IMG/VR virus record: IMGVR_UViG_3300026484_000600
Length of the DNA stretch: 36,705 nucleotides
Source of the DNA: a virus
Lineage: Duplodnaviria > Heunggongvirae > Uroviricota > Caudoviricetes
Reading direction: 5' to 3' (one strand)
Numbering within the stretch: the first letter of the stretch is position 1; each line of letters begins with the position of its first letter. The notes under the pieces are model-generated. The model saw only the letters and a program-made list of their open reading frames with translations, did no database searches and was not told where the DNA came from. Below, piece after piece: positions 3,578 to 21,701 of this stretch. Made by a program: the position numbers and the translations under genes.

Positions 3578-3604
3578 TAAATAAAAATAAAAAAAGGAGT
3601 TGTA

Positions 3605-4303: not shown

Positions 4304-4426
4304 GTGTTTTTTCATGGAATAATTTTTAAATATATATTCTATAAAAATAAATAACTTAAAAATATTTTTTTAGTTTTTTGTAAAATATTAAGTATAAATA
4401 ATTTAAATTTTACAAAGGCTTTATGG

Positions 4427-5608
4427 TTGCAATCTAAATTTAAACATCTCTTTTGGAATATTACTAAATCTGAAATTGACTTAGTTAATGTACTTATTAA
4501 TATTGTTGAACGAGATGATGCGTTTGCTACAGATGGTATAGATCGCAACCAGTTGGGCTACGTAATAGATACTAATATGCATGAATTATCATCATCTCTT
4601 GGATTTTTAGAATTACGTATTGAAACTATTATGCAGACTCTTGAATCTCTTTCAAAATCAGTTGCTACAATATATCATGAAACTGACAACAGTATCCTTA
4701 TGTCTAAAGCTACATTTGTATATCAATATAATATAAGTAGTACTAATAATGATATTAATAAACGATTAAATATTATTGTGAATACTACTATGATTAAATT
4801 ATTGAGAAATAATTTACATTTATTTGAATTATTATATAGAATTGATAAGTATGGTTTAAAAAGCAAATATAGTAAAATAATTTATGAAAAATTCTATAAA
4901 AAAGATAGAACTGTTAGTACTTATTCAATAGAAGAATTAGTACGTATGATCGATTTTGGGTTAGAATATAAAGAACTTACTTGGTCGAGGCTAAATAGCA
5001 ATATTTTAAAGAGGGTTTCCAAAGAGTTAAATGAAAAAACAAATTTATATTTTGAGTATAATAAAATTAAGACAACTGTTGCTGAAACAAATAGAGTACA
5101 AACTGCTGAAATTAGAATAGTAACACATGTTGCTCCTGAAGTTGAAGAACCGAATACATATTTTAGTAAAGAATTTTTGATGAATAGAAAAGTTGCATAT
5201 TATATAGAAAGAGATATAAATCGCAAGTTTAAAGAAATAACGAGATTTAAAACGAAAGATGCTATAGAAAATCCTGAAGCATACAAACATAAATTACGGA
5301 AAGAAGCTTTTAAATTAAGAGATGAATACGAAGCTAAAGTATTATTACAAGAATGGTTAAATAATATTAAATACAACAATTATGAACACGAAGGTTTAGT
5401 TGTATTACAAGATTATAGTAAAGACAATCAATTCATAACGGTTAATAATAATTATAAACTTTATGATATAGAAAAAGGTGTTGAGGTATCCACTAGTGCC
5501 AGAGACACTAGGATGAAAATACAATCATTTATGAAGAAAGGACATTATGATATTGTAGAGACTACGGAATATATAAAGAATTGCTCTATTAGTTATACAA
5601 TGGGTTAA
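4427..5608 (+). CDS. divergent Rep_3 (RepB-like) replication initiator paralog A
   Basis: LKSKYSKIIYE and WSRLNSNILKRVSKELNEKTNL match Rep_3 WH2 motifs; TTG start; TATAAATA at 4393-4400; no adjacent iterons seen. Confidence 0.7.
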   Translation: MQSKFKHLFWNITKSEIDLVNVLINIVERDDAFATDGIDRNQLGYVIDTNMHELSSSLGFLELRIETIMQTLESLSKSVATIYHETDNSILMSKATFVYQYNISSTNNDINKRLNIIVNTTMIKLLRNNLHLFELLYRIDKYGLKSKYSKIIYEKFYKKDRTVSTYSIEELVRMIDFGLEYKELTWSRLNSNILKRVSKELNEKTNLYFEYNKIKTTVAETNRVQTAEIRIVTHVAPEVEEPNTYFSKEFLMNRKVAYYIERDINRKFKEITRFKTKDAIENPEAYKHKLRKEAFKLRDEYEAKVLLQEWLNNIKYNNYEHEGLVVLQDYSKDNQFITVNNNYKLYDIEKGVEVSTSARDTRMKIQSFMKKGHYDIVETTEYIKNCSISYTMG

Positions 5609-6454
5609 TTATTTCACAAAAAATAAATCTGCAATTTTCTTAGGTAGAATATCACCCAATGCCTCAACACTACCTTTTGGAATTGAAATAGTATCATGTG
5701 GTCCATGAGATTCTCTAGGATTGATTCTAACAAGCTGCGCATCTGGTATTTTTTCTTGTATAAATTCTCCCATATTTCTAATAGTTGGTATTGCTGTACC
5801 AGCACCAATTTCAATAACTACTATTTTTGTACCGTTTTTATCATATTTATGCATGAATGCGTTGAAACGTTTCTCTTGTTCAGAAGTTTCTTTTTGATTA
5901 AAATCAAAATCACCAAACATCATAATGTTTGGTCTAGCCATTGCACCGCATTTAGGGCATTTTGGAAGTTTACCTTTGATTTTAAAAGTATTAGGATCTA
6001 CATCAAACTTTGTATCTTCTGGGGCATCCCATGGTTCATCATTACAATCAGTACATTGAAATTTATTGATTCTTCCATGAACTTCATAAACTTTGTCTTT
6101 ATCAAACCCAGCTTTTTGAAATTGACCATCAACATTTGAGGTAACGATAAAGTAATCTTTTTTATCTTTAACTAATTCTTTCAAGGCTGCAAATCCAATA
6201 TGAGGTGTAGTGATTTTGTAAGTGTCAAATCTATGACCGTAAAAAGCCCAAGCAAGTTCAGGATGTTGTTTGAATTGTTTTGGGTTAGCAATTGACATAA
6301 AGTCTATATTTTTCTTTTTTAGTGGTGGATAAGCTTTCCACATACCTTCATTTCCACGAAAATCTGGCAGTCCAGAGTCAACCCCCATACCAGCACCTGC
6401 TGTAATAATTACTACTTCTGCATCTTCAATTTCTTTAATCACATTCATCTCCAT
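5609..6454 (-). CDS. Sir2-family NAD-dependent protein deacylase
   Basis: GAGMGVDSGLPDFRG, TSNVDGQFQKAG, catalytic EVHG, CTDC/CPKC zinc ligands, RPNIMMFGD. Confidence 0.92.
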   Translation of the reverse strand: MEMNVIKEIEDAEVVIITAGAGMGVDSGLPDFRGNEGMWKAYPPLKKKNIDFMSIANPKQFKQHPELAWAFYGHRFDTYKITTPHIGFAALKELVKDKKDYFIVTSNVDGQFQKAGFDKDKVYEVHGRINKFQCTDCNDEPWDAPEDTKFDVDPNTFKIKGKLPKCPKCGAMARPNIMMFGDFDFNQKETSEQEKRFNAFMHKYDKNGTKIVVIEIGAGTAIPTIRNMGEFIQEKIPDAQLVRINPRESHGPHDTISIPKGSVEALGDILPKKIADLFFVK

Positions 6455-6485
6455 AAAGTATTTTCCTTTTATTTATTATAAGTAT

Positions 6486-6514
6486 ATTATATCATAATAA
6501 AATAAATAAGTCAA
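6486..6514 (-). promoter_or_regulatory. sigma70-type early promoter for Sir2 gene
   Basis: TTGACT-N17-TATAAT. Confidence 0.85.
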
Positions 6515-6527
6515 GCAAAATAAAGCT

Positions 6528-6567
6528 CCTCCTCTTTTAATATTCTTTTATATTCTTTAGGCAAAAT
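6528..6567 (-). repeat. partial third copy of the Rep-cassette distal box
   Basis: Reverse complement attttgcctaaagaatataaaagaatattaaaagaggagg closely matches part of the 84-bp boxes at 14363 and 16439. Confidence 0.85.
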
Positions 6568-6623
6568 GAAGAAGATATTTTGGGTTATTAATAAGGCGGT
6601 TTTATTTAATGCTTTAAATAAAT

Positions 6624-6735
6624 TCATTTTATACTTAGGGCGGTTTCATTTTAAATTTGGACTAAATGAAGGTTTTTTCATTTTGTACTTAGAATCAATT
6701 TTATACTTAGGTTAAATAAATCATTTTTTATTTAG
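6624..6735 (+). repeat. iteron array of Rep paralog B
   Basis: tcattttRtacttag-like 15-mers at 6624, 6646, 6678, 6696 (weaker at 6721); exact inverted copy of the 6678 unit at 6788-6802 over the ATG. Confidence 0.8.
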
Positions 6736-6798
6736 AAAAAATTAAAAAAATAATCATTTAAACAATAAATAAAATTAAAAATAAGGTCTAAGTACAAA

Positions 6799-7992
6799 AT
6801 GAAAAAAATAAAAACTGAGATTATGGAAATTAATAAACCTAGTGAATTAACACAAACAATGTTTTTTAAGAATGATGATAGTAATGCTATAGCATCATTA
6901 ACGGCTACACAGATGGATATGTTGAATTTAATTTTTTATAAAAGCAAAGAATATTTTATAAAAGAAAAGGTTGAAATATTAGAATTTATACCATTCGAAA
7001 TAGATTTAAAGATGATTTCAGAGACATTTGACAAATATAATACTGGAGCATATACAGATCTAATTAAGCAATTAGTTGAATTATCTGATATTAAAGTAGT
7101 TATAAATGTATTAGGTAAGAATAAAGATATGAATACTACCTTTACTAGGTTTATTCATAAAATAACAGTATCAAAACATAAAAATAATAATAGGAAAAAA
7201 GTAAGATTGATATTAGATGGAGATATATGTAAAATGATATTTAATGTAAAAAAATTATTTAGTAAATTTTACTTAAAAATACAATTTTCAATGAAATCAA
7301 AATATTCAAAATTACTATATGAACTTCTTAAAGATTATGAAGGGATTTTCACTAAAATTATTGATTATGAACTATTAGTAGGTTTATTGAATGTTGATTA
7401 TGAAAAAACAAACAATGGTAAATGGGCGTTATTCAATCAAAATATTCTTAAAAAAGCAGTTAAAGAAATTAATGAAAAATCAGATATTAAAGTTAGTTAT
7501 GAACCTATCAAAGAAAGACCTGATGGTGGTAGATTACAAGTAACTAAAATTAAATTTATGATGGAGAAACAAGATGAAAACAGATTGAAGGAATTAGGCA
7601 TTTTAGATCAAGAACCAGAATTATCGATAGAAGAGCAAATTCATCAAAATAAACTTAAAAATAAGTCAAAGGCTAAAATGGTTAAATTGGTTAAAAATGG
7701 ATACGAAATTAAAGATGAAGAATCTTGGATTAATACAGATATAAGGAAAAATGAAGAATTATATACTGCTCAATATAAATTAGATGATTATATTGATGCT
7801 TTAGATGATATGGACTTAGACAGCAAGCAAGAACTGCTTTCATCATTAGCTACTTATTTAAAAACTGATGATCCTATTGTATTAATTGACGGATATAGCA
7901 TTAAAGATCTTTCAGGTAATTTTTTAACCACCTCAGCAATCGAAACACGAAAAGTTATTTTAGATTTTCAAGAGGTGTCGGGGTCAAATTGA
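6799..7992 (+). CDS. Rep_3 (RepB-like) replication initiator paralog B
   Basis: INKPSEL, SLTATQMDML, MKSKYSKLLYELLKDY, FNQNILKKAVKEINEKSDIKVSY. Confidence 0.9.
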   Translation: MKKIKTEIMEINKPSELTQTMFFKNDDSNAIASLTATQMDMLNLIFYKSKEYFIKEKVEILEFIPFEIDLKMISETFDKYNTGAYTDLIKQLVELSDIKVVINVLGKNKDMNTTFTRFIHKITVSKHKNNNRKKVRLILDGDICKMIFNVKKLFSKFYLKIQFSMKSKYSKLLYELLKDYEGIFTKIIDYELLVGLLNVDYEKTNNGKWALFNQNILKKAVKEINEKSDIKVSYEPIKERPDGGRLQVTKIKFMMEKQDENRLKELGILDQEPELSIEEQIHQNKLKNKSKAKMVKLVKNGYEIKDEESWINTDIRKNEELYTAQYKLDDYIDALDDMDLDSKQELLSSLATYLKTDDPIVLIDGYSIKDLSGNFLTTSAIETRKVILDFQEVSGSN

Positions 7993-8010
7993 TAATGAAT
8001 ATTATTATCA
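7990..8010. promoter_or_regulatory. Fur-box-like dyad
   Basis: GATAATGAATATTATTATC (7991-8009) matches 16/19 to GATAATGATAATCATTATC. Confidence 0.35.
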
Positions 8011-8024
8011 AAATTAATTAGTAG

Positions 8025-8088
8025 TCTTAATTCAATCTTAAAATTATTTGATAATGATTTCAATAATCATTATCAATTGGCGACTCCC
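8025..8088 (+). repeat. about 65-bp intergenic repeat, copy 1
   Basis: tcttaa-N5-tcttaaaatt then exact 21-mer taatcattatcaattggcgac (8064-8084); second copy at 10870-10932; 12-bp perfect inverted repeat 8048-8076. Confidence 0.8.
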
Positions 8089-8150
8089 ATTTTTTTAAAA
8101 TAAAGTTAATTTTTTGAATAAATAGATTAAAATCAGATAAAGGAACGAAA

Positions 8151-10166
8151 ATGGCAAGAATAGTAGAATTGCTTGAGAAAGAAAATTATACTCCTGTAGA
8201 CGGTACAAAATTTAAAAAATATTCAGAACCTGTTAATATTTTAAGGTTGATTCTTACATGTCAACTGAGAGATTATGAGTCCCTACCTACGGGGCCTAAA
8301 GTGAAAAAAGTATTTGAAGAAAGTGAAAACTTAAAAGAAATAACTACTAGATACAATAGTTTAAGAAAAATTTTAAAGACTAAAAAATCTATAGCTGCAT
8401 TAAAACCTCATAAGAAAAAATTATATGATTTATTATTTGAAATCTTATTACGTTATGCAAAGATTAATAGTTATAAACCATCAGTTTTAGGGACTGCTTT
8501 TGCAAAAACTAAACATGGTGAACTAAATGATTATCAAAAAAAAGTTATAATTAAGTTTGCAAAAACATTATTACATGAAAAGCCAGGTCTAAGAGGTAGA
8601 GATACATTAGAATTAACAAGAATGCTTATTTTTGAAGATGGTATAAAACCTCAACAAATTGAACAAAATAATGAAGAAGTTATACCTGCCGAAGATACTC
8701 AAAATGATTTAGAACCAGATTTAAATTCTAAATTACGTTCTATGAGTACTGAAGAAATTGATATTATTAGTAAAACTGTAAAGGAACGATTTTCTAAGAA
8801 CAATGATATATTAGATTCAAAGATGTCTGAAGTAGAAACATTAACTCATGAGTTAGATATAGATTTAGTAGATATTGAAGAATATTCAAAAATTAAATTT
8901 AAAGAAGCAAAAATTTCTCCAGAAGTAGAAGCTAAGGCTGATATTGTTGAAAATCAATTGCATACTGCGATTAATGAAATTGATTTAAGTAAATATCCAG
9001 AGAAAAAAGCTAAGAAAATTAAGAAAGTAGCAAGTGTTATGGTGTCTGATATTCTTGTAAATTTTGCAAAGTTTATTCCTAATGAATTAAATAGAGAATT
9101 TTTAACTACTAGTAAAATGATTGGTAATCAACTTGTTGTTAGTTTTCAAGATATTCAAGAAGAAACAAATTTTACTAGAACTTTTACTATTAGTGATAAT
9201 GGAGATATTGAGAAAGTACAACATACTTTATTTGAAGTTCCACCATCAGCTCAAAAAACTGGTTTATCTAAATCGGCAATTGCTGATATGTTAAAATTGT
9301 ATAAAGCTGCAGGTATTAAAAAAGTTGAATTACATGCAAATATAGGTTTGGGTGGTTATGTATGGTTGCGATATGGATTCAAACCTAATGAAGATCAAAT
9401 ATCAAAGATAAAAGATTCTTTTACTGATATTTATAATTGTGTGAAATATGGTTTAAAACCTGGTTATACAGTAGGTGTTACTCCAGATAATGTTTTAGAT
9501 TCAATTATAAAACATTTTGATAATCCAGTAATTACTCTTACTCTACAAACTATTAAGAAAAATTATGATATGCAGAAAGCCAAATTGGATAACATGCTAT
9601 TAAATGATTTTGGATGGGATAAATATACTGAAGCCCCTATTAAATTCAATTATACTTTTAATGAGATAATTGCAGAAACATTTAAGAATATTGGAACTGA
9701 ATTAGCAAAACAGTTTAAAATTAATGTAGATACTTTGCATGAAGATATAGCATTATCTAAAAAAGATATAAAACTTAAAGTTCCAACACTTAAATTGGTT
9801 ACAAATAATAAATTGGCAGATGAAATGATTAGAGAATATGCATTATCCAAAGCTACAAGTTCTGCTGAAGCACAAATTGCAAGAACTATTAAATCAAAAA
9901 AAATAATCGATAAATATTTTGGTAGTAGGATTTTCAAAATGTCAGAAGATGTTAAATTTACGATTTCAGTTAAGAAATTTTTAACAATGACTGGAATTAG
10001 TATTGAGACTGTACAAGGTCAAATTTCAGTCTTACCTGGAAATCCTGCAGATTTCGCAGCAGGAATTGATATGATGCCTGGAGCTATGGAGTGGAAAGGC
10101 TATTTAGATTTAACAGATGAAAAACAGTTTAAAACTGCAATGAAATATGCTACAGCTACTAAATAG
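8151..10166 (+). CDS. large protein with internal GNAT-like domain
   Basis: LFEVPPSAQKTGLSK, GIKKVELHAN, GGYVWLRYGF resemble GNAT motifs A/B; AATAAATA at 8117-8124. Confidence 0.55.
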   Translation: MARIVELLEKENYTPVDGTKFKKYSEPVNILRLILTCQLRDYESLPTGPKVKKVFEESENLKEITTRYNSLRKILKTKKSIAALKPHKKKLYDLLFEILLRYAKINSYKPSVLGTAFAKTKHGELNDYQKKVIIKFAKTLLHEKPGLRGRDTLELTRMLIFEDGIKPQQIEQNNEEVIPAEDTQNDLEPDLNSKLRSMSTEEIDIISKTVKERFSKNNDILDSKMSEVETLTHELDIDLVDIEEYSKIKFKEAKISPEVEAKADIVENQLHTAINEIDLSKYPEKKAKKIKKVASVMVSDILVNFAKFIPNELNREFLTTSKMIGNQLVVSFQDIQEETNFTRTFTISDNGDIEKVQHTLFEVPPSAQKTGLSKSAIADMLKLYKAAGIKKVELHANIGLGGYVWLRYGFKPNEDQISKIKDSFTDIYNCVKYGLKPGYTVGVTPDNVLDSIIKHFDNPVITLTLQTIKKNYDMQKAKLDNMLLNDFGWDKYTEAPIKFNYTFNEIIAETFKNIGTELAKQFKINVDTLHEDIALSKKDIKLKVPTLKLVTNNKLADEMIREYALSKATSSAEAQIARTIKSKKIIDKYFGSRIFKMSEDVKFTISVKKFLTMTGISIETVQGQISVLPGNPADFAAGIDMMPGAMEWKGYLDLTDEKQFKTAMKYATATK

Positions 10167-10167
10167 C

Positions 10168-10196
10168 TTGATTTATTTAGTAAATTATGGTATAAT
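10168..10196 (+). promoter_or_regulatory. sigma70-type early promoter
   Basis: TTGATT-N17-TATAAT with TG extension. Confidence 0.8.
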
Positions 10197-10222
10197 ATAT
10201 TAATTATAATGGAGAAATTATT

Positions 10223-10438
10223 ATGGAAATGAATGGAAAAGGACCTTTTACAAAAGTAGGAGAAAGTGTAACTGATGCGGGTTTATTCGACCATGTTTTT
10301 GATGGTACTGATGATGCACACGATGAACAATTAAAAGCTGAAAAACTTTTAGCAGCTATAAAAACAGAAATGCTCAGACGTTCTATGATTAAAGAAAGTT
10401 TTGAGGATACAGTTAAAATGCTTTTAGAGGATTTTTAA
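10223..10438 (+). CDS. hypothetical protein
   Basis: 71 aa, GGAG RBS, upstream promoter. Confidence 0.75.
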   Translation: MEMNGKGPFTKVGESVTDAGLFDHVFDGTDDAHDEQLKAEKLLAAIKTEMLRRSMIKESFEDTVKMLLEDF

Positions 10439-10439
10439 T

Positions 10440-10706
10440 TTGAAAAATGTTAAAGAAGAAGATGTTGAAAAACTACTCACTAGATTTTATAAAGATGCTG
10501 TTATCAAAAAATCTAGAGAGGACTTTATAATTTTAAAATATAAGCATGGGGACTTTGATAAACTTATACCGAATGATATTTTTTTTAATGTTGTTCATTT
10601 TTTACCAAACATAAAATTCCGTCAAAAACCTTTTGTTATGGGTGTATCTTACAATATTAGAACGAAAATATATGAAATAACGATAATAAACCCTAAGATT
10701 TATTAA
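10440..10706 (+). CDS. hypothetical protein
   Basis: 88 aa, TTG start abutting previous stop, GAGG RBS. Confidence 0.65.
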   Translation: MKNVKEEDVEKLLTRFYKDAVIKKSREDFIILKYKHGDFDKLIPNDIFFNVVHFLPNIKFRQKPFVMGVSYNIRTKIYEITIINPKIY

Positions 10707-10796
10707 AAAATTAATAAAAAAAAATTTTCTTACATAAATAAAATTAATATAAATCAAAACAAAGAAAAAGTTCGTTATGGTTTTTATTATTTCACC

Positions 10797-10823
10797 GGAA
10801 TTTCTTTTTTAAAGGGAAATTCC
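10797..10823. terminator. hairpin, possible terminator
   Basis: ggaatttc/gaaattcc 8-bp stem after the 10223-10706 unit. Confidence 0.45.
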
Positions 10824-10869
10824 ACCTTTTATTAAATCTTCCTTAAATTTAAAACTTATACATAATTTA

Positions 10870-10932
10870 TCTTAAAGTCATCTTAAAATTTGTTTAAATT
10901 GATTAATGTAATCATTATCAATTGGCGACCCC
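10870..10932 (+). repeat. about 65-bp intergenic repeat, copy 2
   Basis: tcttaa-N5-tcttaaaatt and exact taatcattatcaattggcgac (10909-10929). Confidence 0.8.
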
Positions 10933-10951
10933 TAATTCATCAAAAATAAAC

Positions 10952-10980
10952 TTGACATTCCATCTAATTTATGTTATGAT
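10952..10980 (+). promoter_or_regulatory. sigma70-type early promoter
   Basis: TTGACA-N17-TATGAT; variant of the 24-bp core. Confidence 0.8.
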
Positions 10981-11008
10981 ATGATATAATTAAAGAAAAG
11001 GTATAATT

Positions 11009-11752
11009 ATGATTACGTATACTTGTGAATCTGTTGGGATGCATGGGAATTGTGGGGATGGATGTCCTCTTTTTGCTGATGGATTGTGTGAGATACCATT
11101 TGAAATTGATAATATTGAATTATATCCTGATGAATATGATGAAATCATAGAAAGCTATAATGCTGTTGCTCGAGCTAAAAAGGAACGAGATATGCAGATA
11201 GAACAATTACAACAAAGAAAACCCAATTTTAAAATTTCAAAAGCGTTTGTATGTAATATGTTAGTAGATTATTATCAAAATAAAGACAATAGTTTAAAAA
11301 ATCCTATGAAGATGTTTATAGATAATGATGCTTTTGATGAAGAAATCATTAATGGTATAACAGACAAATTAAATAAAGTAAGTAATTACGAGCGATTTGC
11401 GTTCGATTTACTTTTAAACGGTTTAGAGAAGCATATTATACCTTCATTTAAAAATCATTATGGATTCTTTGGAGAAATTCTTTCTGATATGCATACAAAT
11501 TCTTCACTATCAACTCTTAAAGAACTTCAAAATAATTTTTATGAAGCTGATTTAAATATGAATTTTTTTAATAACTTAGGTTATACTGTTGACTCTATAT
11601 TTTTAGCTATAGATTCTGATGGTTTAAGTAGAGTGCAACTTAGAATTTTAAAGCATGAAGATTATGATATAACTACAAAAATAAAAATTGCAGAGATTAG
11701 TGGAGATAATAGTTTTTTACCGCAACAATTACAAGATATGTTTATATTTTAG
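11009..11752 (+). CDS. hypothetical protein with Cys-rich N-terminus
   Basis: 247 aa; CESVGMHGNCGDGCPLFADGLC; C-terminal FLPQQLQDMFIF. Confidence 0.8.
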   Translation: MITYTCESVGMHGNCGDGCPLFADGLCEIPFEIDNIELYPDEYDEIIESYNAVARAKKERDMQIEQLQQRKPNFKISKAFVCNMLVDYYQNKDNSLKNPMKMFIDNDAFDEEIINGITDKLNKVSNYERFAFDLLLNGLEKHIIPSFKNHYGFFGEILSDMHTNSSLSTLKELQNNFYEADLNMNFFNNLGYTVDSIFLAIDSDGLSRVQLRILKHEDYDITTKIKIAEISGDNSFLPQQLQDMFIF

Positions 11753-11761
11753 CAAGATAAC

Positions 11762-11790
11762 TTGACTTTTCCTTCTAATTATGTTATAAT
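11762..11790 (+). promoter_or_regulatory. sigma70-type early promoter with 24-bp core
   Basis: TTGACT-N17-TATAAT; exact core 11780-11803. Confidence 0.9.
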
Positions 11791-11817
11791 ATGGCATAAT
11801 TAAAGAAAAGGATACTT

Positions 11818-12030
11818 ATGAAAGAGTATAACGAAATTCCAGAAAGTTTAAAGTTAATGTTAGAAGAAGCTGTTAGTACAGACCCTTATGGTTTATCACC
11901 AAAAACACTTTATAAAAACATTGCATCTTCACTATTATTTACACCGGCTGATAAAGTTAGTAAGATTATGGAAGTATCATATTCAGTTGTAGTTATGATT
12001 GCAGATGAAAATGAAATAGGTCTTTCGTAA
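11818..12030 (+). CDS. hypothetical protein
   Basis: 70 aa, AAGGA RBS after promoter. Confidence 0.8.
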   Translation: MKEYNEIPESLKLMLEEAVSTDPYGLSPKTLYKNIASSLLFTPADKVSKIMEVSYSVVVMIADENEIGLS

Positions 12031-12122
12031 TGGTTTGGTGGGTAATAGCCTTTTTGTTCTTAGTATATGATCAATTAGCATTTGCATTTTTATTTGCGAT
12101 GATAGCTTTAAATAGGAGTTAA
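12030..12122 (+). CDS. 30-aa hydrophobic membrane micropeptide (not in ORF track)
   Basis: MVWWVIAFLFLVYDQLAFAFLFAMIALNRS; ATG overlaps upstream TAA (TAATG), stop abuts next gene. Confidence 0.6.
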   Translation: MVWWVIAFLFLVYDQLAFAFLFAMIALNRS

Positions 12123-12123
12123 G

Positions 12124-12372
12124 ATGAATATGGTTACAAGTAAGATACCTGCAGATGTTTGTAGTGTATTGATGGATTTGGCACAAGGTTTTGATGGTAT
12201 AGTTAATATTGATTATACTGATATTGCAGAGTGGAGTGATAAAGCTTCAAAAGAAGAAATTGATGAATTAAGAAGTCTTATAGCAGATTTAGCTGATTTG
12301 GATTATGCTTTTGATGAAGATGAAGATGCTCGAGAGATAGCAAATAAAATAACTACGATGGTAAAAGGTTAG
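12124..12372 (+). CDS. acidic hypothetical protein
   Basis: 82 aa, AGGAG RBS. Confidence 0.8.
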   Translation: MNMVTSKIPADVCSVLMDLAQGFDGIVNIDYTDIAEWSDKASKEEIDELRSLIADLADLDYAFDEDEDAREIANKITTMVKG

Positions 12373-12374
12373 AT

Positions 12375-12953
12375 ATGAAAAAAGTAGAGATAAAAGAGAT
12401 TGTAGAAAATAAGGAACCAAAGTTTGTAAAAACAGAACTCGTTAAAGCTGAACGAGATGGTGTCCCATTTTTATGGGAGCGTATCAAGTCTCATGATTCC
12501 GTACATGTACTCATAGATAATATGGAAGCTGGTGAAATAATTGTTGTTGAACAAGTAAGAGTTCCTGTTTTATGCAATGATGCTTCTCAAGATGGTAGAG
12601 TAACAGAAGCATGTGCTGGTTTAGTTGATAAAGATAAGGGTATAGCAGAAATTGCTAGAGAAGAAATCTTAGAGGAGTGTGGATTTGATGTGCCATTAGA
12701 CGGTATTAAATTTCTAAAAACATTAAAAAGTTCAGTAGGTACTGCTGGTACAGAATCACATGCATTTATTGCAGAAGTAACAAATGATATGAAAGTTTCT
12801 GATGGTGGAGGACTAGCAGAGGAAGATATAAATGTGGTTCGTATTAAATATGAAGATATCAATGATTATTTCTTTAATTCAGATATTCATACTGATGCTA
12901 TTACTATGTTTTTAATTACATTCTGGATGCTTTATCATACTTCTATGGATTAG
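12375..12953 (+). CDS. Nudix hydrolase, ADP-ribose/NDP-sugar pyrophosphatase-like (NudF/NudK type)
   Basis: HDSVHVL, EQVRVPV, Nudix box EACAGLVDKDKGIAEIAREEILEECGF, DGGGLAEEDINVV. Confidence 0.88.
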   Translation: MKKVEIKEIVENKEPKFVKTELVKAERDGVPFLWERIKSHDSVHVLIDNMEAGEIIVVEQVRVPVLCNDASQDGRVTEACAGLVDKDKGIAEIAREEILEECGFDVPLDGIKFLKTLKSSVGTAGTESHAFIAEVTNDMKVSDGGGLAEEDINVVRIKYEDINDYFFNSDIHTDAITMFLITFWMLYHTSMD

Positions 12954-14148
12954 ATTTTAACTCTTCCAAAACTAAATATGTTTCATAAGCATTACTTGTA
13001 AGTGGTGCTTGTGTATCATCAAAAACAAAACCTAATTTATAATCGGTCATACCTACTAAATCACCATATTTTATTGATAATGCATCATTGAATTTTGATA
13101 AATCTGTATTATCTAAAACTTCCTTCGATTCTTCTATTAAATCTTGTAGTTCAACATATTCATCTGTAATAGAAGATATAGTTTTTTTAATCCATGCTTC
13201 TTCATTTTTGATTTCCTGAAATTGTTTTGCTTTCTCTAATCTTTGTTCTGCTATTGATTTCTTTTTATTATATTTGATTTGCTCTTCTATCGATAATTCT
13301 GGTTCTTGATTATCTATCAAATCACATTTTTGTTTATGAAATTCAACGGTCATAGTAGTTTTACCATTTTTCTTTTTACCATATATTTTATCTATATAAA
13401 TATCTGTATTTGCATTTATTTCTTTAATTGCTTTATTGAGGTATGCGCTTTTTAATTTACTTGGTGTGTCGGTATTAGATTTGGTTCTATCTATACCTAG
13501 TACGACAATCCATTCATCAAAGTTTTTAGTTAATGGTTTATTTAGATTTTCATAATCCTTACATATCTCATATAAAATTTTAGAGTAAGTTAATTTTAAT
13601 TTTGTTTGTATTTTTAAATAAAGTTTTGCAAATGGTTTAGTTTTGTGAATCCAACCTAATAAAATTTCCGGTTCTAATTGAAAATCTGCCTTCGTACTGT
13701 TTGTAACTCTTGTATAATTTCTCAGAAGTGACATTGTTTTGACAGCATGAATGTCTCCAAGCAATTCATCTTGTTTAAAAATACCTACTTTAACAGATAC
13801 AGCTCTTAATGCGTCTAAAATAGATGATAACTCAGTTTTATTCTGTCGACTTTTATATTTGCCTATAAAATTGGCTAACTTTTTTAAATCTAATTCAAAA
13901 TGTTGAATTTCTAAAAATTCAAATAATTCATCTTCATTTTTAAATGATGCAAGAGTTTTTTCTACATCCATTTTTTTATGGATTTGTTCTCTTGCTAAAT
14001 AGCACATATAATTCATAGCATCATGTTGTGTTGGTGTTAAGGTGTAATGTTCATAACCTTTAATTCGCCCACGTTTTATTATCGGTGTTTTATACTCACT
14101 TGTAATCAATGCACTAGGTTTATGAATTTCAAATATATCCTGTCTCAT
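12943..14148 (-). CDS. Rep_3 (RepB-like) replication initiator paralog C
   Basis: EIHKPSAL, TLTPTQHDAM, LKLTYSKILYEICKDY, LKSAYLNKAIKEINANTDI; start moved to 14148 because GGAG RBS lies at 14154-14157. Confidence 0.88.
   Translation of the reverse strand: MRQDIFEIHKPSALITSEYKTPIIKRGRIKGYEHYTLTPTQHDAMNYMCYLAREQIHKKMDVEKTLASFKNEDELFEFLEIQHFELDLKKLANFIGKYKSRQNKTELSSILDALRAVSVKVGIFKQDELLGDIHAVKTMSLLRNYTRVTNSTKADFQLEPEILLGWIHKTKPFAKLYLKIQTKLKLTYSKILYEICKDYENLNKPLTKNFDEWIVVLGIDRTKSNTDTPSKLKSAYLNKAIKEINANTDIYIDKIYGKKKNGKTTMTVEFHKQKCDLIDNQEPELSIEEQIKYNKKKSIAEQRLEKAKQFQEIKNEEAWIKKTISSITDEYVELQDLIEESKEVLDNTDLSKFNDALSIKYGDLVGMTDYKLGFVFDDTQAPLTSNAYETYLVLEELKSNP
13158..13290. repeat. 133-bp direct repeat shared by rep C and rep D 3' regions
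   Basis: One mismatch versus 15260-15392; a further ~49-bp shared block at 13033-13081 / 15135-15183. Confidence 0.9.
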
Positions 14149-14258
14149 AATCACTCCATTTTATCATGTTCTGTTGTTACCTTATTTATATATATTTTAC
14201 AATATAAAATATTAACATTTTTTTATATACTTTTAGTGTCATAATATATAAAGACATT

Positions 14259-14350
14259 GTAACAATAGAATATGAAGGTAACAATAGAATATGAAGAAAC
14301 CGTTTTAATGTAATAGTAGAATGTGTAAAATGTAATATTGAAATGTGAAC
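14259..14350. repeat. iteron array of Rep paralog C
   Basis: gtaacaatagaatatgaag exact at 14259 and 14278, degenerate at 14310 and 14332; inverted copy (14/16) at 14165-14180 next to the RBS. Confidence 0.8.
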
Positions 14351-14362
14351 TTTTATTCCAAG

Positions 14363-14446
14363 CCATCTTTTAACCCCTTATAAACACCGGCAAAAAACGT
14401 TTGTATTTTGCCTAAAGAATAGATAAAGAATATTAAAAGAAGAGGA
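14363..14446. repeat. 84-bp perfect direct repeat, copy 1 (Rep cassette distal box)
   Basis: Identical to 16439-16522; contains ggcaaaa...ttttgcc inverted repeat. Confidence 0.95.
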
Positions 14447-14475
14447 GAGATAGACTAAGTGTTCACTAAAATGAA

Positions 14476-15045
14476 TCAAGAGCTTATTATTAAATTTTCT
14501 AAATAAATTTTTGTGGATTTATGAACCGCCAATAGTAGAAGATTATTAGATTGCCATACATGTAATTTATCTAATTTTAAATCGTAATTGGATTCTATAA
14601 TATGATTATTTTTTATTATATGGATAGATATATCTTTATCTTTAGACAAAGATAACCATAAATATTTTGTTCCTGTATAATGTTTGTAATCTGATAAAAT
14701 TGATAATTTATTTTTTAATATAGCTTTATAGAATTTAGTTGTGATACCTTGTTTCCTATATTTATTACATGTATCTATGCTCTCTTCCTGTTGTACAAGA
14801 CCTTTAAAATTTTTTATTTGATATTTATCGGTTTCAAGAATTGATACAATACAGTTGGTAACTGTATCAATCAAATAAAATTTTTGTTTGGTTCCCATGA
14901 TAATTATACGAATGTCGAATGGACTTTCTATGGGGATACCATTATATTCAATTAAGTTGTGTTTTGTAGAACAAAGTTCTATATCGTATGATTGCCTATC
15001 ACCATTCTTCAATTCAGGCATTTCTATTAATGAATTTATTGTCAT
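14476..15045 (-). CDS. GNAT-family acetyltransferase-like protein
   Basis: KYRKQGITTKFYKAIL (motif A-like R/QxxG), ILSDYKHYTGTKYLWLSL; start overlaps rep D stop (ATGA). Confidence 0.55.
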   Translation of the reverse strand: MTINSLIEMPELKNGDRQSYDIELCSTKHNLIEYNGIPIESPFDIRIIIMGTKQKFYLIDTVTNCIVSILETDKYQIKNFKGLVQQEESIDTCNKYRKQGITTKFYKAILKNKLSILSDYKHYTGTKYLWLSLSKDKDISIHIIKNNHIIESNYDLKLDKLHVWQSNNLLLLAVHKSTKIYLENLIISS

Positions 15046-16220
15046 TTTGATTCTCCATCTAATGTCTGTAAAATATTTAATGTTTCTTTTGCATTATTAG
15101 TGATAGATGGTTTAGATTCATCAAAAATATAAATTAATTTATAATCGGTCATACCTACTAAGTCACCATATTTTATTGATAATTTCTCTGCATAATCTTT
15201 GATATTGATATTATCTATTTGTTCTTTAGCAGATTCTATTTGCTCTTGTTCATCTAGAAATTCATCTGTAATAGAAGATATGGTTTTTTTAATCCATGCT
15301 TCTTCATTTTTGATTTCCTGAAATTGTTTTGCTTTCTCTAATCTTTGTTCTGCTATTGATTTCTTTTTATTATATTTGATTTGCTCTTCTATTGGAAGCT
15401 CTGGTTCTAAATCTAATAATCCTAATTTTTGTAACCGAGAATCAGGTTGTTTCTCCATCATAAATTTAATTTTAGTTACTTGTAATCTACCACCATCAGG
15501 TCTTTCTTTGATAGGTTCATAACTAACTTTAATATCTGATTTTTCATTAATTTCTTTAACTGCTTTTTTGAGAATATTTTGATTGAATATAGACCATATT
15601 CTTTGTGAAGCTTCACTAACATTGATTAAATCCATTAAAACATTCAGTTCAAATTGTTTTATATTTAAACCTTCATAATCTTTTAGTAATTCATATAATA
15701 GCTTTGAATATTTTGACTTCATTGAAAATTGAATAGTTAAAAACATTTTTGAAAAATATTTCTTAACATCTATAAATCTTTTTATGATTGTATTTGAAAT
15801 CGCCAATTTGATTCTTTTCTTTTCAGTTTTTTTATGTTTAGATACTCTTATTTCTTGAATGAATCTAGTAATAATCATTTCGTCTATATCTTTATTTTTA
15901 CCAATACTATTAATTATAATTTTTATATCGGATAATGAATCTAACTGTTCGATTATTTCACTATATTGGTTATTATTATATTTGTGGATCATATTATTGA
16001 AGTCATTTAATGTAAATTCAAAAAGTGTTGAGGGTTGTGTGTCGTCTATTTTTAATTTATATTTACCAATTTCTTTTCGTATCTTATAAAACATAACATT
16101 TATAAGATCTATTTGTAATGCCGACATTTTATAAATATTTAGTTCTTTTTTTATTTGTTGAGTAAAAACAACTTGAGTTAATTCACTTGGCTTATTAAGT
16201 TCTAATTTTTCAATATTCAT
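15042..16220 (-). CDS. Rep_3 (RepB-like) replication initiator paralog D
   Basis: LNKPSEL, MSALQIDLIN, MKSKYSKLLYELLKDY, FNQNILKKAVKEINEKSDIKVSY. Confidence 0.9.
   Translation of the reverse strand: MNIEKLELNKPSELTQVVFTQQIKKELNIYKMSALQIDLINVMFYKIRKEIGKYKLKIDDTQPSTLFEFTLNDFNNMIHKYNNNQYSEIIEQLDSLSDIKIIINSIGKNKDIDEMIITRFIQEIRVSKHKKTEKKRIKLAISNTIIKRFIDVKKYFSKMFLTIQFSMKSKYSKLLYELLKDYEGLNIKQFELNVLMDLINVSEASQRIWSIFNQNILKKAVKEINEKSDIKVSYEPIKERPDGGRLQVTKIKFMMEKQPDSRLQKLGLLDLEPELPIEEQIKYNKKKSIAEQRLEKAKQFQEIKNEEAWIKKTISSITDEFLDEQEQIESAKEQIDNINIKDYAEKLSIKYGDLVGMTDYKLIYIFDESKPSITNNAKETLNILQTLDGESK
15447..15588. repeat. 142-bp inverted repeat shared by rep D and rep B
   Basis: Reverse complement of 7431-7572 with one mismatch. 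Confidence 0.9.
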
Positions 16221-16325
16221 TTGTGGTATCCTTTTTATAAATTATACATTTTTATTTATATATAAAATTGAATAAAAATCAATATTTATGTTAATTTAAT
16301 ATTGAAAATATAATATATAAATGTC

Positions 16326-16428
16326 CACAATCTAATATTGATTTTTAGTTGGTAACACGATCTAATATTGATTTGATACTCTATACCCACAATCTAATAT
16401 TGGTTTTAACACAATCCAATATTGATTT
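16326..16428. repeat. iteron array of Rep paralog D
   Basis: cacRatcYaatattgRttt 19-mers at 16326, 16356, 16388, 16410; inverted copy (13/16) at 16210-16225 over the ATG. Confidence 0.88.
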
Positions 16429-16438
16429 TTATTTTCAT

Positions 16439-16522
16439 CCATCTTTTAACCCCTTATAAACACCGGCAAAAAACGTTTGTATTTTGCCTAAAGAATAGAT
16501 AAAGAATATTAAAAGAAGAGGA
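16439..16522. repeat. 84-bp perfect direct repeat, copy 2
   Basis: Identical to 14363-14446, 2,076 bp apart. Confidence 0.95.
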
Positions 16523-16523
16523 C

Positions 16524-16552
16524 TTGACTTTCTCTTCGAGATATGTTATAAT
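16524..16552 (+). promoter_or_regulatory. sigma70-type early promoter
   Basis: TTGACT-N17-TATAAT, TATG extension. Confidence 0.85.
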
Positions 16553-16578
16553 ATAGAAAATTAATACAGAGGTGAAAA

Positions 16579-16812
16579 ATGAATATTGGGATTTATGATT
16601 CAAATAATCGAGAAATTAAAATTGGAGATGAAATAGAGGTTGTGAACTGGTTCAAAGAAACAATCAAATCAAAAGTTAAAATTGAAATGATTACGGTTAC
16701 AGGAGATGATCATAATTATGTTGATGTTATTGGTATTGAGACATCAGACTTATGGCAATATGAAAATACGGGCAAAGGCTTAAAAGCTATTAATGTTACA
16801 GTAGTAAGTTAA
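16579..16812 (+). CDS. small phage protein, YopX-like fragment
   Basis: DSNNREIKIGDEIEV resembles the YopX DKNGKEIYEGDIV motif. Confidence 0.55.
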   Translation: MNIGIYDSNNREIKIGDEIEVVNWFKETIKSKVKIEMITVTGDDHNYVDVIGIETSDLWQYENTGKGLKAINVTVVS

Positions 16813-16868
16813 AATAAAATTAAGCAAAACCAGAGTATAATATAATATAATTAATAAAAGGAAAAAAT

Positions 16869-17315
16869 ATGAAACCTATTGAAATTAAACCGGAAATTAG
16901 AGTAATGAGTCATGAAGAATTAACAGCACGTTTAGAATATCTATCTTTTGAATTTTGTATAAATGCTGACTTTCAAAAAATTGATGCTGTTAATAAGTTA
17001 GTAGCTCGTTTAGAAGAATATTCTATGGAAGCATTAATGAGAGTTATGGAGGGGAAATTAGGTTATAGACCGCTACAAAATAAAATCTATGAAAAGGTTG
17101 AAGGATTATTTGATAATCAAGATAGTTACAATATAAACCGTATGTTCAGCTCTATGAGACGTACTCATTATTTTGGTGTTATTGATCCTGAAGATAAAAA
17201 GTACATTGAGTGGTTTAAAAACCGTGTTAAATATGGCGTTAAATCATTGATTAGAGAGGTCCATACAGTTTCATATGTAACTGTACCTAAATTCGAAGAA
17301 TTAGTTTATGAGTAA
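16869..17315 (+). CDS. hypothetical protein
   Basis: 148 aa, AAGGA RBS. Confidence 0.8.
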   Translation: MKPIEIKPEIRVMSHEELTARLEYLSFEFCINADFQKIDAVNKLVARLEEYSMEALMRVMEGKLGYRPLQNKIYEKVEGLFDNQDSYNINRMFSSMRRTHYFGVIDPEDKKYIEWFKNRVKYGVKSLIREVHTVSYVTVPKFEELVYE

Positions 17316-17628
17316 AAAACTATACGAGCGAAAATCAGACGGTACTTTTGAAGAAATTGGTGTAGAATTTACTGGCTTTCCTTCAAATGGTCTATGGTTA
17401 GTTGAGGATGGAAAACAAAACTGCATTATTCCTATGGGGAAGAAAACCTTAAAACCTGATAAAGTATTACTAAGTTATATGGTATTTCAAGATGAATTAC
17501 AAGATTATATTAGTACTGCATGGAGTGATACAAGTCTTTCAGTTAGAGATATTTCAAAAATTGCTTGTGAGTTTTTTGCTTTAAAAGCAGGTGGAATGAA
17601 AATAGGTGAGGAAATTATTGAAAATTAA
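17308..17628 (+). CDS. hypothetical protein
   Basis: 106 aa, overlaps upstream stop. Confidence 0.75.
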   Translation: MSKKLYERKSDGTFEEIGVEFTGFPSNGLWLVEDGKQNCIIPMGKKTLKPDKVLLSYMVFQDELQDYISTAWSDTSLSVRDISKIACEFFALKAGGMKIGEEIIEN

Positions 17629-17630
17629 AC

Positions 17631-17659
17631 TTGACTTTTCTTTCTAATTATGTTATAAT
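17631..17659 (+). promoter_or_regulatory. sigma70-type early promoter with 24-bp core
   Basis: TTGACT-N17-TATAAT; 53 bp identical to the 19441 promoter. Confidence 0.9.
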
Positions 17660-17687
17660 ATGGCATAATTAAAGAAAAGGATATGAA

Positions 17688-17816
17688 ATGAATTTCAAAA
17701 GAAAAAATACTTCAAAAAGAGATAAACTTCGTAGAGCAGCACCAACTTATTATTACACAACTCCAAAATCTGTTAAATTGCAGCTTGAATTTAAACGTGT
17801 TAAAGTTGAGGTTTAA
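17688..17816 (+). CDS. 42-aa basic peptide (not in ORF track)
   Basis: MNFKRKNTSKRDKLRRAAPTYYYTTPKSVKLQLEFKRVKVEV; first ORF after promoter and AAGGA RBS. Confidence 0.65.
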   Translation: MNFKRKNTSKRDKLRRAAPTYYYTTPKSVKLQLEFKRVKVEV

Positions 17817-19434: not shown

Positions 19435-19442
19435 TGAGAAAC

Positions 19443-19471
19443 TTGACTTTTCTTTCTAATTATGTTATAAT
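19443..19471 (+). promoter_or_regulatory. sigma70-type early promoter with 24-bp core
   Basis: TTGACT-N17-TATAAT; exact core 19461-19484. Confidence 0.9.
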
Positions 19472-19499
19472 ATGGCATAATTAAAGAAAAGGAAACTAA

Positions 19500-21626: not shown

Positions 21627-21641
21627 GATTATTCCTAGAAA
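21620..21641. terminator. hairpin at rIIA end
   Basis: tttctagga-ttat-tcctagaaa 9-bp stem, T-rich tract shortly after. Confidence 0.5.
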
Positions 21642-21644
21642 GTC

Positions 21645-21673
21645 TTGATTTTTTTCTTTGAATATGTTATAAT
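21645..21673 (+). promoter_or_regulatory. sigma70-type early promoter
   Basis: TTGATT-N17-TATAAT; variant core. Confidence 0.8.
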
Positions 21674-21701
21674 ATAATATAATTAAAGAAAAGGATCAAA
21701 A

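Follow-up and report, generated by a model that had tools for sequence, protein, structure and literature searches.

Three complete plasmid-style modules (B, C and D), each combining an initiator gene with its own iteron repeats, are found in the genome of a 221-kb uncultured T4-like phage from hydrothermal-vent metagenomes. They are probably three functional paralogous Rep_3 iteron-type replication-initiation modules of this phage, and the best reading of their sequences is that of specificity-diverged ori/rep units with autoregulation. Orthogonality, origin firing and a role in a T4-like lytic phage are what we infer for them. The module layout is known from plasmids; in phages of the T4-like jumbo type it is apparently undescribed. 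The window, i.e. the whole stretch of DNA analysed, is 36,705 nt long (36.7 kb), and the motif scans of it allowed mismatches.

Cassette B consists of the following elements:

6486-6514, minus strand: strong sigma-70-like promoter (TTGACT-17-TATAAT with TG), leading away from box B into the Sir2 gene
6526-6596, plus strand: conserved box B, with a polypyrimidine run, two tandem TATTCTTTA 9-mers and TTATTAATAAGG
6623-6736, plus strand: iteron array B, copies starting at 6623, 6645, 6677 and 6695 and a weak fifth at 6720; core TTCATTTTATACTTAGG
6787-6802, minus strand: inverted B iteron, containing the ATG at 6799; 1 mismatch in its 14-nt core
6799-7992, plus strand: rep B, 397 aa, Rep_3 (WH1 and WH2) with a C-terminal domain of about 130 aa

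The promoter element is one among several copies repeated across the window. Cassettes C and D lie in tandem on the opposite strand, the elements of C being:

12943-14148, minus strand: rep C, 401 aa, Rep_3, with its ATG at 14148 and a GGAG RBS at 14154-14157
14164-14180, plus strand: inverted C iteron, 2 mismatches in 17, 6 nt upstream of the GGAG RBS
14259-14349, minus strand: iteron array C, copies at 14349-14332, 14327-14310, 14295-14278 and 14276-14259
14363-14446, minus strand: conserved box C, 84 bp, identical to box D

Cassette D, together with the gene that separates it from box C, comprises:

14476-15045, minus strand: 189-aa gene (phrog_15502) between box C and rep D
15042-16220, minus strand: rep D, 392 aa, Rep_3, with an ortholog in relatives G003/L003
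16210-16226, plus strand: inverted D iteron, containing the ATG at 16220; 3 mismatches in its 15-nt core
16279-16305, minus strand: palindrome of iteron 5' halves (TCAATATT, 11 nt, AATATTGA)
16325-16426, minus strand: iteron array D, copies at 16426, 16404, 16372 and 16342; core ATCAATATTAGATTGTGG
16439-16522, minus strand: conserved box D, 84 bp
16524-16552, plus strand: strong divergent promoter (TTGACT-17-TATAAT with TG), immediately beside box D

Mismatch-tolerant motif scans reproduced the iteron spacings given in the initial annotation, namely 22, 32 and 18 bp in array B (25 to the weak fifth copy), 22, 32 and 19 in array C (starts 14349, 14327, 14295 and 14276) and 22, 32 and 30 in array D. 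The 28-bp offset that it reported between the box and 'acaat' is exact for D; for the degenerate distal copy of C it agrees to within 1 nt. The copies vary in quality: B copies 2 and 5 are weak (4 mismatches in 17), and in array C the proximal pair is perfect while the distal pair carries 4-5 mismatches in 18. It is mainly their position in the register seen across the family that identifies the distal C copies and B copies 2 and 5 as iterons.

That register recurs in about 20 independent cassettes of related uncultured phages, nearly every one of which precedes a 385-430-aa Rep_3 ORF. The distance from the box to iteron 1 is 59-65 nt throughout (typically 62-63 nt), and the spacings are 22 or 32/33 between iterons 1 and 2, always 32 between iterons 2 and 3, and 18/19 or 30-32 between iterons 3 and 4. 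The spacing variants thus lie about one helical turn apart (10-12 bp), as expected if face-of-helix phasing is selected; 22 and 32 bp correspond to 2.1 and 3.05 helical turns, and the 18-19-bp spacing is off phase. Despite this constant layout the iteron sequences are mutually unrelated, so the combination of constant architecture with differing specificity proposed for three loci holds for the wider set, and the recurrence of one layout in some 20 related phage modules argues for a working design. The cassettes are syntenic in related phages, near rIIB, Rep A, Sir2 and rIIA.

Each locus was also claimed to carry an inverted iteron copy, and one is present on or beside the RBS or start codon in all three (6787-6802, 14164-14180 and 16210-16226). 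It is found 11-14 nt past a -10-like hexamer: 11 nt after TAAAAT (6770-6775) in B, 13 nt downstream of the extended -10 TGTAAAAT (14194-14201, minus strand) in C, and 14 nt after the extended -10 TGTATAAT (16241-16248, minus strand) in D. In the 36.7-kb window the B motif at 1 mismatch in 14 and the C motif at 2 mismatches in 17 have no further occurrence, and the D motif at 3 or fewer mismatches has 5 other matches on both strands. The chance of a D-motif match within 60 nt of the start is ~0.004, and the inverted D iteron is identical in sequence in the L003 ortholog. Across the family, 10 of 18 cognate pairs agree at 12 or more of 15 positions, versus 6% of non-cognate pairs, and the inverted iteron at the rep start is a putative autoregulatory site family-wide. 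Rep_3 monomers contact iterons with both WH domains and dimers contact operators with WH2 only (RepE structures 1REP and 2Z9O). The start-site repeat is a full single iteron of the monomer type and not the palindromic half-site operator typical of Rep_3 dimers. Among B, C and D a half-site palindrome occurs only in D; its arms are preserved in the ortholog, whereas its spacer has changed.

In each cassette the stretch that separates the last direct iteron from the inverted iteron contains the least stable DNA, which ranks in the window's top 1% for instability; the conserved box, on the far side of the array, does not stand out in this respect. DnaA boxes (TTATCCACA, at most 1 mismatch) are absent from the three control regions (6455-6800, 14150-14475 and 16210-16620). 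Such boxes are common in Rep_3 origins without being universal.

Rep B, C and D are genuine members of the Rep_3 initiator family. All three (397, 401 and 392 aa) match Rep3_N (PF01051) and Rep3_C (PF21205) above the Pfam curated cutoffs, and as full-length ORFs that retain every invariant column of a 61-member family alignment they bear out the earlier description of the genes as intact. The predicted structure of Rep D (pLDDT 88) aligns with RepE54-iteron complexes at TM 0.81-0.85 and also superposes on pi, with WH1 at residues 1-165, WH2 at 170-257 and a helical C-terminal domain at 277-391; similarity to the solved Reps at the sequence level is marginal (E 0.002-0.03). The extra C-terminal domain (~130 aa) has no Pfam match, and PF06430 (RepB_C) was undetected in the whole proteins or their C-terminal parts. 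Relative to its ortholog, Rep D shows 15 non-synonymous and 56 synonymous codon differences over 243 codons, which supports purifying selection and agrees with the initial annotation in favouring function over decay.

Judged by their shared segments, the Reps are recombination mosaics. B and D have in common a patch over the WH2 helix and wing (100% aa and 92% nt identity), and C and D a patch in the linker (96-100% identical). Since the WH2 recognition helix and wing of B and D are identical, some cross-talk is possible and strict orthogonality is doubtful. Iteron similarity tracks the identity of WH1 and of WH2a (Mantel r 0.41-0.46, p<0.001) and does not track that of the C-terminal domain (r 0.13). 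The iterons, WH1 and the N-terminal half of WH2 (Rep residues ~1-217) appear to behave as one swappable specificity unit, although physical linkage alone could cause the correlation.

Natural variants lacking B or D, with a C/D hybrid or with a different B module, are found among the relatives. In the 224-kb relative G003, B is gone except for a 90-nt 3' remnant, and a single rep is a C/D hybrid with the N-terminus of D and the C-terminus of C. In run X2 one contig passes directly from 14362 to 16439 and so omits 2,076 bp, the joint lying across the 84-bp repeat, and on the same contig 6601-7451 (the B iterons and Rep B residues 1-217) is replaced by unlike DNA of near-equal length. In the source run the even depth of ~55 over the C and D units indicates that their tandem arrangement is real. 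No single module is essential, as for each of B, C and D there is a natural relative in which it is missing or hybrid; the sufficiently long relatives examined (G003 and L019) each keep at least one cassette.

These variants bear on whether all three modules work. That only D is active, with B and C redundant duplicates drifting to loss, would fit the internal agreement of the arrays, D being the cleanest (69/72 positions) and B and C, with their degenerate distal copies, reaching 62-63/72 where most relatives have 66-72/72; it would also fit the conserved Rep D ortholog under purifying selection and the deletion of B, down to its 3' remnant, in G003. However, the B and C ORFs are full length with all family-invariant residues kept, of the three inverted iterons theirs match best (1/14 and 2/17 mismatches), the X2 variant retains C and not D, and many relatives have intact B-type and C-type cassettes. 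We therefore regard activity of D alone as very unlikely.

The rapid turnover, the mosaic exchange and the allelic replacement of the specificity unit at one locus could alternatively reflect a weapon of competition, in which extra arrays and Reps titrate, handcuff or hijack the initiators of co-infecting relatives or resident plasmids. The position of the cassettes in a hyperplastic region beside genes of defence or counter-defence type (Sir2, NUDIX and rII) is consistent with this, as are box and iteron arrays without a neighbouring rep in relatives L033 and L106. Titration, however, would need less than the conserved full origin layout, the phasing constraint and the autoregulatory site, and the proposal is compatible with functional origins instead of excluding them; as an explanation in its own right it is decidedly improbable.

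The 84-bp perfect direct repeat (14363-14446 = 16439-16522) raises a third alternative, that the modules are selfish mini-replicons or satellite-like passengers and that the 2,076-bp unit could loop out as an autonomous circle using the phage or host replisome. The repeats enclose a box, iterons, rep D and the extra 189-aa gene (which has no Pfam match), and so cover the needs of a minimal theta replicon; the X2 variant lacks exactly this unit with its joint inside the repeat, and cassette presence or absence differs between relatives. Some family members carry a T5orf172/MUG113 domain, which we take to be GIY-YIG-like, fused to the Rep N-terminus, and this has a mobile-element flavour. A precedent comes from the PLE satellites of phage ICP1, which are reported to employ an iteron-binding RepA for their own replication (PMC7145576). 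Against this, the family has so far been found only within related phage genomes at syntenic positions, with one weak match in 72,556 plasmid records and no tblastn match in 50,697 GenBank phage records. G003 and L019 have not dispensed with their cassettes altogether, the unit is phage-like in composition, a Pfam search of its proteins found no recombinase domain, and no circular junction of the unit was present among the 15 joints listed (there were 41 further joints). Ordinary homologous deletion or duplication explains the X2 joint equally well, and we consider a mini-replicon origin of the modules unlikely.

Functional phage origins, the reading that we prefer, have their closest counterparts in mini-F ori2/RepE, R6K gamma ori/pi and pPS10 oriV/RepA. 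Common to these and the phage modules are the two-winged-helix initiator, direct iterons upstream of rep, adjoining DNA that in the phage is predicted to melt easily, and, at the rep promoter, an inverted sequence derived from the iteron, for which autoregulation in the phage is predicted from sequence. The phage Reps differ in carrying the extra C-terminal domain, and the phage spacing is irregular but conserved (22/32/18-30) whereas that of the plasmids is uniform at ~22 bp. The phage start site bears a full inverted iteron in place of the half-site palindrome that lies over -35/-10 in the plasmids, D alone having both; the phage cassettes lack a DnaA box, have a conserved non-iteron box at a fixed distance, and occur three to four times per genome in a T4-like jumbo phage. 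Lambda O/ori-lambda and P1 RepA/oriR likewise place a phage initiator on repeated sites adjoining AT-rich DNA, but lambda O is not a Rep_3 protein and its iterons lie inside the O gene, while P1 RepA maintains a temperate phage as a plasmid and has a single specificity. In class A theta replicons, 22-bp iterons are combined with an AT-rich region and with inverted repeats that cover the rep RBS and -35 (PMC4490491). Within the pCI305/pWV02-type of Lactococcus, highly related and mutually compatible replicons (PMC4490491) combine, like the phage modules, a conserved scaffold with diverged specificity; they have 3.5 uniform 22-bp repeats and RepB_C (PF06430) and reside on separate plasmids, in contrast to the non-uniform, PF06430-free tandem modules of one phage genome. 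The T4 origins oriA, oriC, oriE, oriF and oriG resemble the phage modules in being several per genome with promoters adjoining the origin (PMC3016281), but they act through R-loops that host RNA polymerase makes, without a dedicated initiator or iterons.

By analogy with F RepE, R6K pi and pPS10 RepA, a working model may be outlined. A module would consist, in order, of an often present strong outward promoter, the box, 4-5 direct iterons, a 70-100-bp very easily melted stretch that would also house the rep promoter, the inverted iteron at about +5 to +25 relative to the presumed transcription start, and rep. Rep monomers would occupy the phased direct iterons on roughly one helix face, help to open the adjacent DNA and recruit a helicase; Rep proteins are known to bind DUE ssDNA (PMC4081077; PDB 8AAN and 8AC8). 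The replisome recruited would probably be the phage's own T4-type machinery, possibly by way of the unique C-terminal domain. When bound to the inverted iteron, Rep would turn off its own promoter, and in D dimers may also act on the half-site palindrome. Recombination at two conserved flanks, namely the box and the invariant WH2 helix and wing, would transfer the specificity unit as a whole, and lineages could thus gain, lose and swap origins of different specificity. As to why one genome should hold several specificities, we speculate that identical arrays in cis would pair ('handcuff') and inhibit each other, in which case only diverged copies could coexist as active origins.

Without any initiator, T4-type phages are able to replicate from R-loop origins and by recombination (PMC3016281), so replication need not depend chiefly on the modules. 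A far-reaching version of the model, which we put forward tentatively and hold to be rather doubtful, is that a T4-like jumbo/mega phage lineage replaced or supplemented R-loop/recombination initiation with shuffled Rep_3 cassettes, giving mutually non-interfering origin sets, box-flanked units that may excise as mini-replicons and a 'replication identity' in co-infection. The textbook example of replication that needs no dedicated origin-binding initiator is that of the T4-type phages; if the modules fire, an uncultured branch of large phages begins DNA synthesis in the style of iteron plasmids from several independently addressed origins. The family offers a natural library of about 20 initiator/binding-site pairs on one scaffold and in one geometry, and probably contains more than 100. 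Such a library would be useful for studying how Rep_3 proteins read DNA, for the limits that helical phasing and handcuffing place on origin design, and for orthogonal origin sets. The population data suggest that origin specificity is exchangeable among phages, which bears on the competition of co-infecting relatives.

Finally, the window encodes a fourth, divergent member of the initiator family:

4427-5608, plus strand: Rep A, a Rep_3 paralog with neither box nor iterons, in which only Rep3_C is detected

A 9-bp inverted repeat (4378-4386/4407-4415) lies on both sides of the Rep A -10-like TATAAAT, and the protein is 97% identical to its homolog in G003 and 60% identical to that of L019.

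Four Rep_3 genes lie inside 12 kb of the window, with the following coordinates and domain matches.

4427-5608, plus strand: Rep A, Rep3_C match only
6799-7992, plus strand: Rep B, Rep3_N and Rep3_C above Pfam cutoffs
12943-14148, minus strand: Rep C, Rep3_N and Rep3_C above Pfam cutoffs
15042-16220, minus strand: Rep D, Rep3_N and Rep3_C above Pfam cutoffs

The predicted structure of Rep D (pLDDT 88) contains two winged-helix domains (WH1, residues 1-165, and WH2, residues 170-257) and a helical C-terminal domain (residues 277-391). Residues 1-257 of the model superpose on RepE54-iteron complexes (TM 0.81-0.85, RMSD of ~3 Å) and on pi as well, and when the Rep C-terminal domains were searched against Pfam, nothing rose above noise. 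In a 61-sequence alignment of the family, no protein segment is more conserved than the WH2 helix. The divergent paralog Rep A is without the KPS N-terminal motif, box and iterons, its -10 is surrounded by a 9-bp inverted repeat (4378-4415), and its conservation between phages (97% in the 224-kb related phage G003, and 60%) is far above that of the cassette Reps; Rep A may be a common factor or regulator.

The initial annotation proposed that B, C and D are intact orthogonal ori/rep pairs whose specificity diverged while the 22/32-bp geometry was kept, favoring function over decay. Its iteron spacings were exactly reproduced for all three loci by mismatch-tolerant scans (B 22/32/18, with +25 to a weak fifth copy; C 22/32/19; D 22/32/30), and the single inverted iteron that it had placed at each start is present as a full-length copy at 6787-6802 (B), 14164-14180 (C) and 16210-16226 (D). 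The inverted iteron begins 11-14 nt after a -10-like hexamer at all three loci (an extended -10 at C and D). On the presumed transcript it occupies positions ~+5 to +25, where it either covers the RBS and start codon or immediately precedes them. Scanned at stringencies that recover the inverted copies, neither the B nor the C motif matches anywhere else in the window. The D inverted iteron is weaker (3/15 mismatches) and is letter-identical in L003, the contig carrying the Rep D ortholog; in the same comparison it is conserved alongside the arms of a D half-site palindrome whose spacer has diverged. The observation is solid and its interpretation is supported at the level of sequence. The best-supported reading, which we judge reasonably likely, is that all three Rep_3 ori/rep modules work, that their specificities have diverged, and that each represses itself at the inverted iteron. 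The internal agreement of the window's B and C arrays counts against this reading and would fit activity of D alone with B and C drifting: it is 62-63/72 positions, compared with 66-72/72 in most relatives; Rep B and Rep C keep all invariant columns of the family alignment, and Rep D differs from its G003 ortholog over 243 N-terminal codons by 15 amino-acid changes and 56 synonymous-only codon differences. We consider activity of D alone very unlikely.

In nearest-neighbor stability profiles, the stretch from the last direct iteron to the inverted iteron contains the least stable 30-mers (-25 to -28 kcal/mol, within the top 1% of the window), and the box region lies at -30 to -39. The predicted meltable stretch is thus bracketed by the direct iterons on one side and the inverted iteron on the other, and it also contains the rep promoter. 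A strong promoter is directed away from the box at B, D, L003 and several relatives, and its firing could generate upstream negative supercoiling that helps DNA opening. No DnaA box was found in the cassette control regions of the window.

The 84-bp box is a perfect repeat at C and D, and a diverged copy is present at B. In the family box, two tandem TATTCTTTA 9-mers come after a polypyrimidine run, and usually TTATTAATAAGG follows ~24 nt later; beyond the box comes an A-tract and then the first iteron, starting 59-65 nt past the box (~20 cassettes). Because the box is kept at a fixed distance across cassettes whose Reps are <25% identical, its conservation points to a common reader, which could be the invariant WH2 helix, Rep A (conserved and iteron-less), or a loader from host or phage. 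A hairpin inside the 84-bp box (GGCAAAA...TTTTGCC) was rejected as a family feature, being confined to the C, D and L003 lineage. The string TCTATTCTT is common to the box (second 9-mer) and to the iterons of two C-clade loci, L027 and L084, and a near-copy of that string, TTCTATTGTT, occurs in the window's C iteron; chance and common ancestry are both conceivable.

Related cassettes were recovered from IMG/VR and metagenome contigs by protein- and pattern-based scans, and ~20 were kept once unrelated matches had been removed. The metagenome scan returned 117 stretches, from which ~60 (one sample group, with an unrelated repeat sharing a 24-nt string) were excluded, a further dozen being chance matches inside genes; in viral contigs the long exact box pattern had 0 matches and a shorter pattern only 2. 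The unrelated repeat family is abundant (loci L013-L125, ~60 contigs, Ga01573xx samples) and opens with the 24-nt string of the box, after which come a conserved AT-rich stretch and GATGAT repeats. Across the ~20 cassettes the spacings are quantised, I1-I2 being 22 or 32/33, I2-I3 always 32, and I3-I4 18/19 or 30-32, where I1-I4 are the successive direct iterons. The alternatives differ by 10-12 bp, one helical turn, and are scattered over both Rep clades, while the iteron sequences are largely unrelated from cassette to cassette, so spacers have been held or changed by whole turns as sites were replaced. This is the pattern that selection for helical phasing of bound protein predicts, and chance or simple decay would not yield conserved spacing with replaced sites. 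In nearly all cassettes a Rep_3 ORF of 385-430 aa begins 203-287 nt past the box, and in 10/18 a cognate inverted iteron lies near the start (≥12/15 positions, several perfect), compared with 6% for non-cognate pairings. The loci contain homologs of the window's rIIA, rIIB, Sir2, Rep A and neighboring genes, so the cassettes belong to one phage lineage.

Several members depart from this layout. On a 496-kb contig of megaphage size (L131, GCA_029935755.1), positions 9640-10002 hold a box variant, two interleaved repeat types and an inverted copy, ahead of a 402-aa Rep_3 gene; the contig also encodes a second family member (P0075). Two orphan modules, L033 (minus strand, box 3717) and L106 (box 4822), have a box and four good iterons (22/32/18/26) with no rep gene downstream, the next genes being on the opposite strand; each module may represent a remnant, an origin served in trans or a control array of the incA type. 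At L038 (635-1610) the rep frame is broken into two pieces of 188 and 167 aa; the copy may be decaying, or the break may stem from a frameshift or a sequencing error.

Windowed identities and codon comparisons reveal recombination patches in the Reps. Between B and D amino-acid identity reaches 100% (nucleotide identity 92%) across the recognition helix and wing of WH2, with flanks at 33-46%, between C and D the linker after WH2 is 96-100% identical, and the single cassette rep of G003 resembles D over residues 1-260 and C at its end. Similarity between iterons tracks identity in WH1 and WH2a (Mantel r 0.41-0.46, p<0.001) and not the C-terminal domain, which in these sequences fits a specificity unit of iterons plus the Rep N-terminal two-thirds, although physical linkage alone could produce the same correlation. 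A TCAWWWTT-like 5' half is common to many iterons. In RepE, whose structures include 1REP and 2Z9O, WH2 reads the iteron half shared with the operator, and by analogy WH2 of the phage Reps would read the common iteron half and WH1 the variable one.

Natural variants exchange or lose these units. Alignment to G003 shows the B cassette removed, with the last ~90 nt of rep B remaining beside the Sir2 promoter, and one C/D hybrid in place of the window's C, 189-aa gene and D. Depth in the source run is even (~53-58) over C, D and their flanks, which shows that the C/D tandem is genuine and did not arise from two strains assembled together. In X2, a public run from another study, one contig joins 14362 to 16439, and the 2,076 bp that it omits are precisely those between the 84-bp repeats; this variant therefore retains C without D. 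A second X2 contig matches the window up to 6601 (the B box end) and again from 7451 (Rep B residue ~217, the start of the invariant WH2 patch), with 859 nt of unlike sequence replacing 850 nt of the window; the segment exchanged in this allelic swap coincides precisely with the proposed specificity unit. That the cassettes are selfish excisable mini-replicons would accord with the precise 2,076-bp omission; no circular junction of this unit was among the joints listed, and we regard such selfishness as unlikely. An N-terminal T5orf172/MUG113 domain, which we take to be a GIY-YIG-like nuclease, is present on Rep_3 proteins P0022, P0024, P0052, P0059 and P0061 of some metagenomic relatives (430-590 aa, most 550-590), and this fusion hints at homing-type mobility of the cassettes. 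The allelic swap would also fit modules that act in competition or incompatibility when relatives co-infect, a role that appears very unlikely; this role, selfish excision and activity of D alone are not mutually exclusive. Under three working modules, carrying several specificities per genome may avoid handcuffing between identical arrays in cis, a mechanistically grounded guess.

By protein, iterons and operator-like site the modules belong to the Rep_3 iteron replicon class. Unlike characterised members they have the C-terminal domain and the conserved box, a spacing that is non-uniform yet conserved, and a single full inverted iteron downstream of the -10, and they are without DnaA boxes; carrier and copy number also differ. 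Compatible lactococcal theta plasmids are a well-known case of the same logic, in which the scaffold is conserved and the specificity diverges (PMC4490491). We found no published description of Rep_3 iteron cassettes in T4-like or jumbo phages, and such initiators are not mentioned in jumbo-phage reviews or the NAD-jumbo-phage paper. A Fusobacterium 'RPA' preprint was rejected as a parallel, since it concerns a different initiator family. Megablast of 6400-16900 against plasmid and phage collections and tblastn of Rep D against GenBank phages gave no match; tblastn of Rep D against plasmids gave one weak match (Hymenobacter, 34% over 32% of the query).

The cassettes reside in a T4-like jumbo phage with AT-rich DNA (GC ~27% in the window) and a source contig of 221,509 bp, and hydrothermal-vent metagenome runs hold DNA near-identical to the window. 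NrdD, the RNR small chain, SprT and a DEDDh exonuclease are encoded in the window together with the rII genes.

2392-3519: rIIB
19500-21626: rIIA

No host can be inferred, because rIIA is only ~29% identical to that of any cultured phage and a scan of genome contigs gave only two distant Rep_3 matches, in one Cloacimonadota MAG and one Lachnospiraceae MAG. Rfam and tRNA scans of the window had zero matches. Between rIIB and Rep A the window has a segment inserted relative to G003 (3590-4349), which holds a 232-aa gene of unknown family (3605-4303); Pfam searches of this gene and of the 189-aa gene between C and D gave nothing above noise. Sir2-family, NUDIX-like and GGDEF genes (5609-6454, 12375-12953 and 27268-27846) lie beside or after the cassettes and are of a NAD and nucleotide-signaling type that occurs in phage counter-defence. 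Finally, an intergenic element of 55-100 nt is repeated in at least 8 copies in the window and in many copies in G003.

Copies of the intergenic promoter element
889-955
2261-2320
6460-6515
10943-11001
11746-11814
17621-17703
19440-19519
21608-21709

Each holds a near-consensus TTGACT-17-TATAAT promoter and a conserved leader; the elements are probably phage early promoters and possible recombination hot spots.
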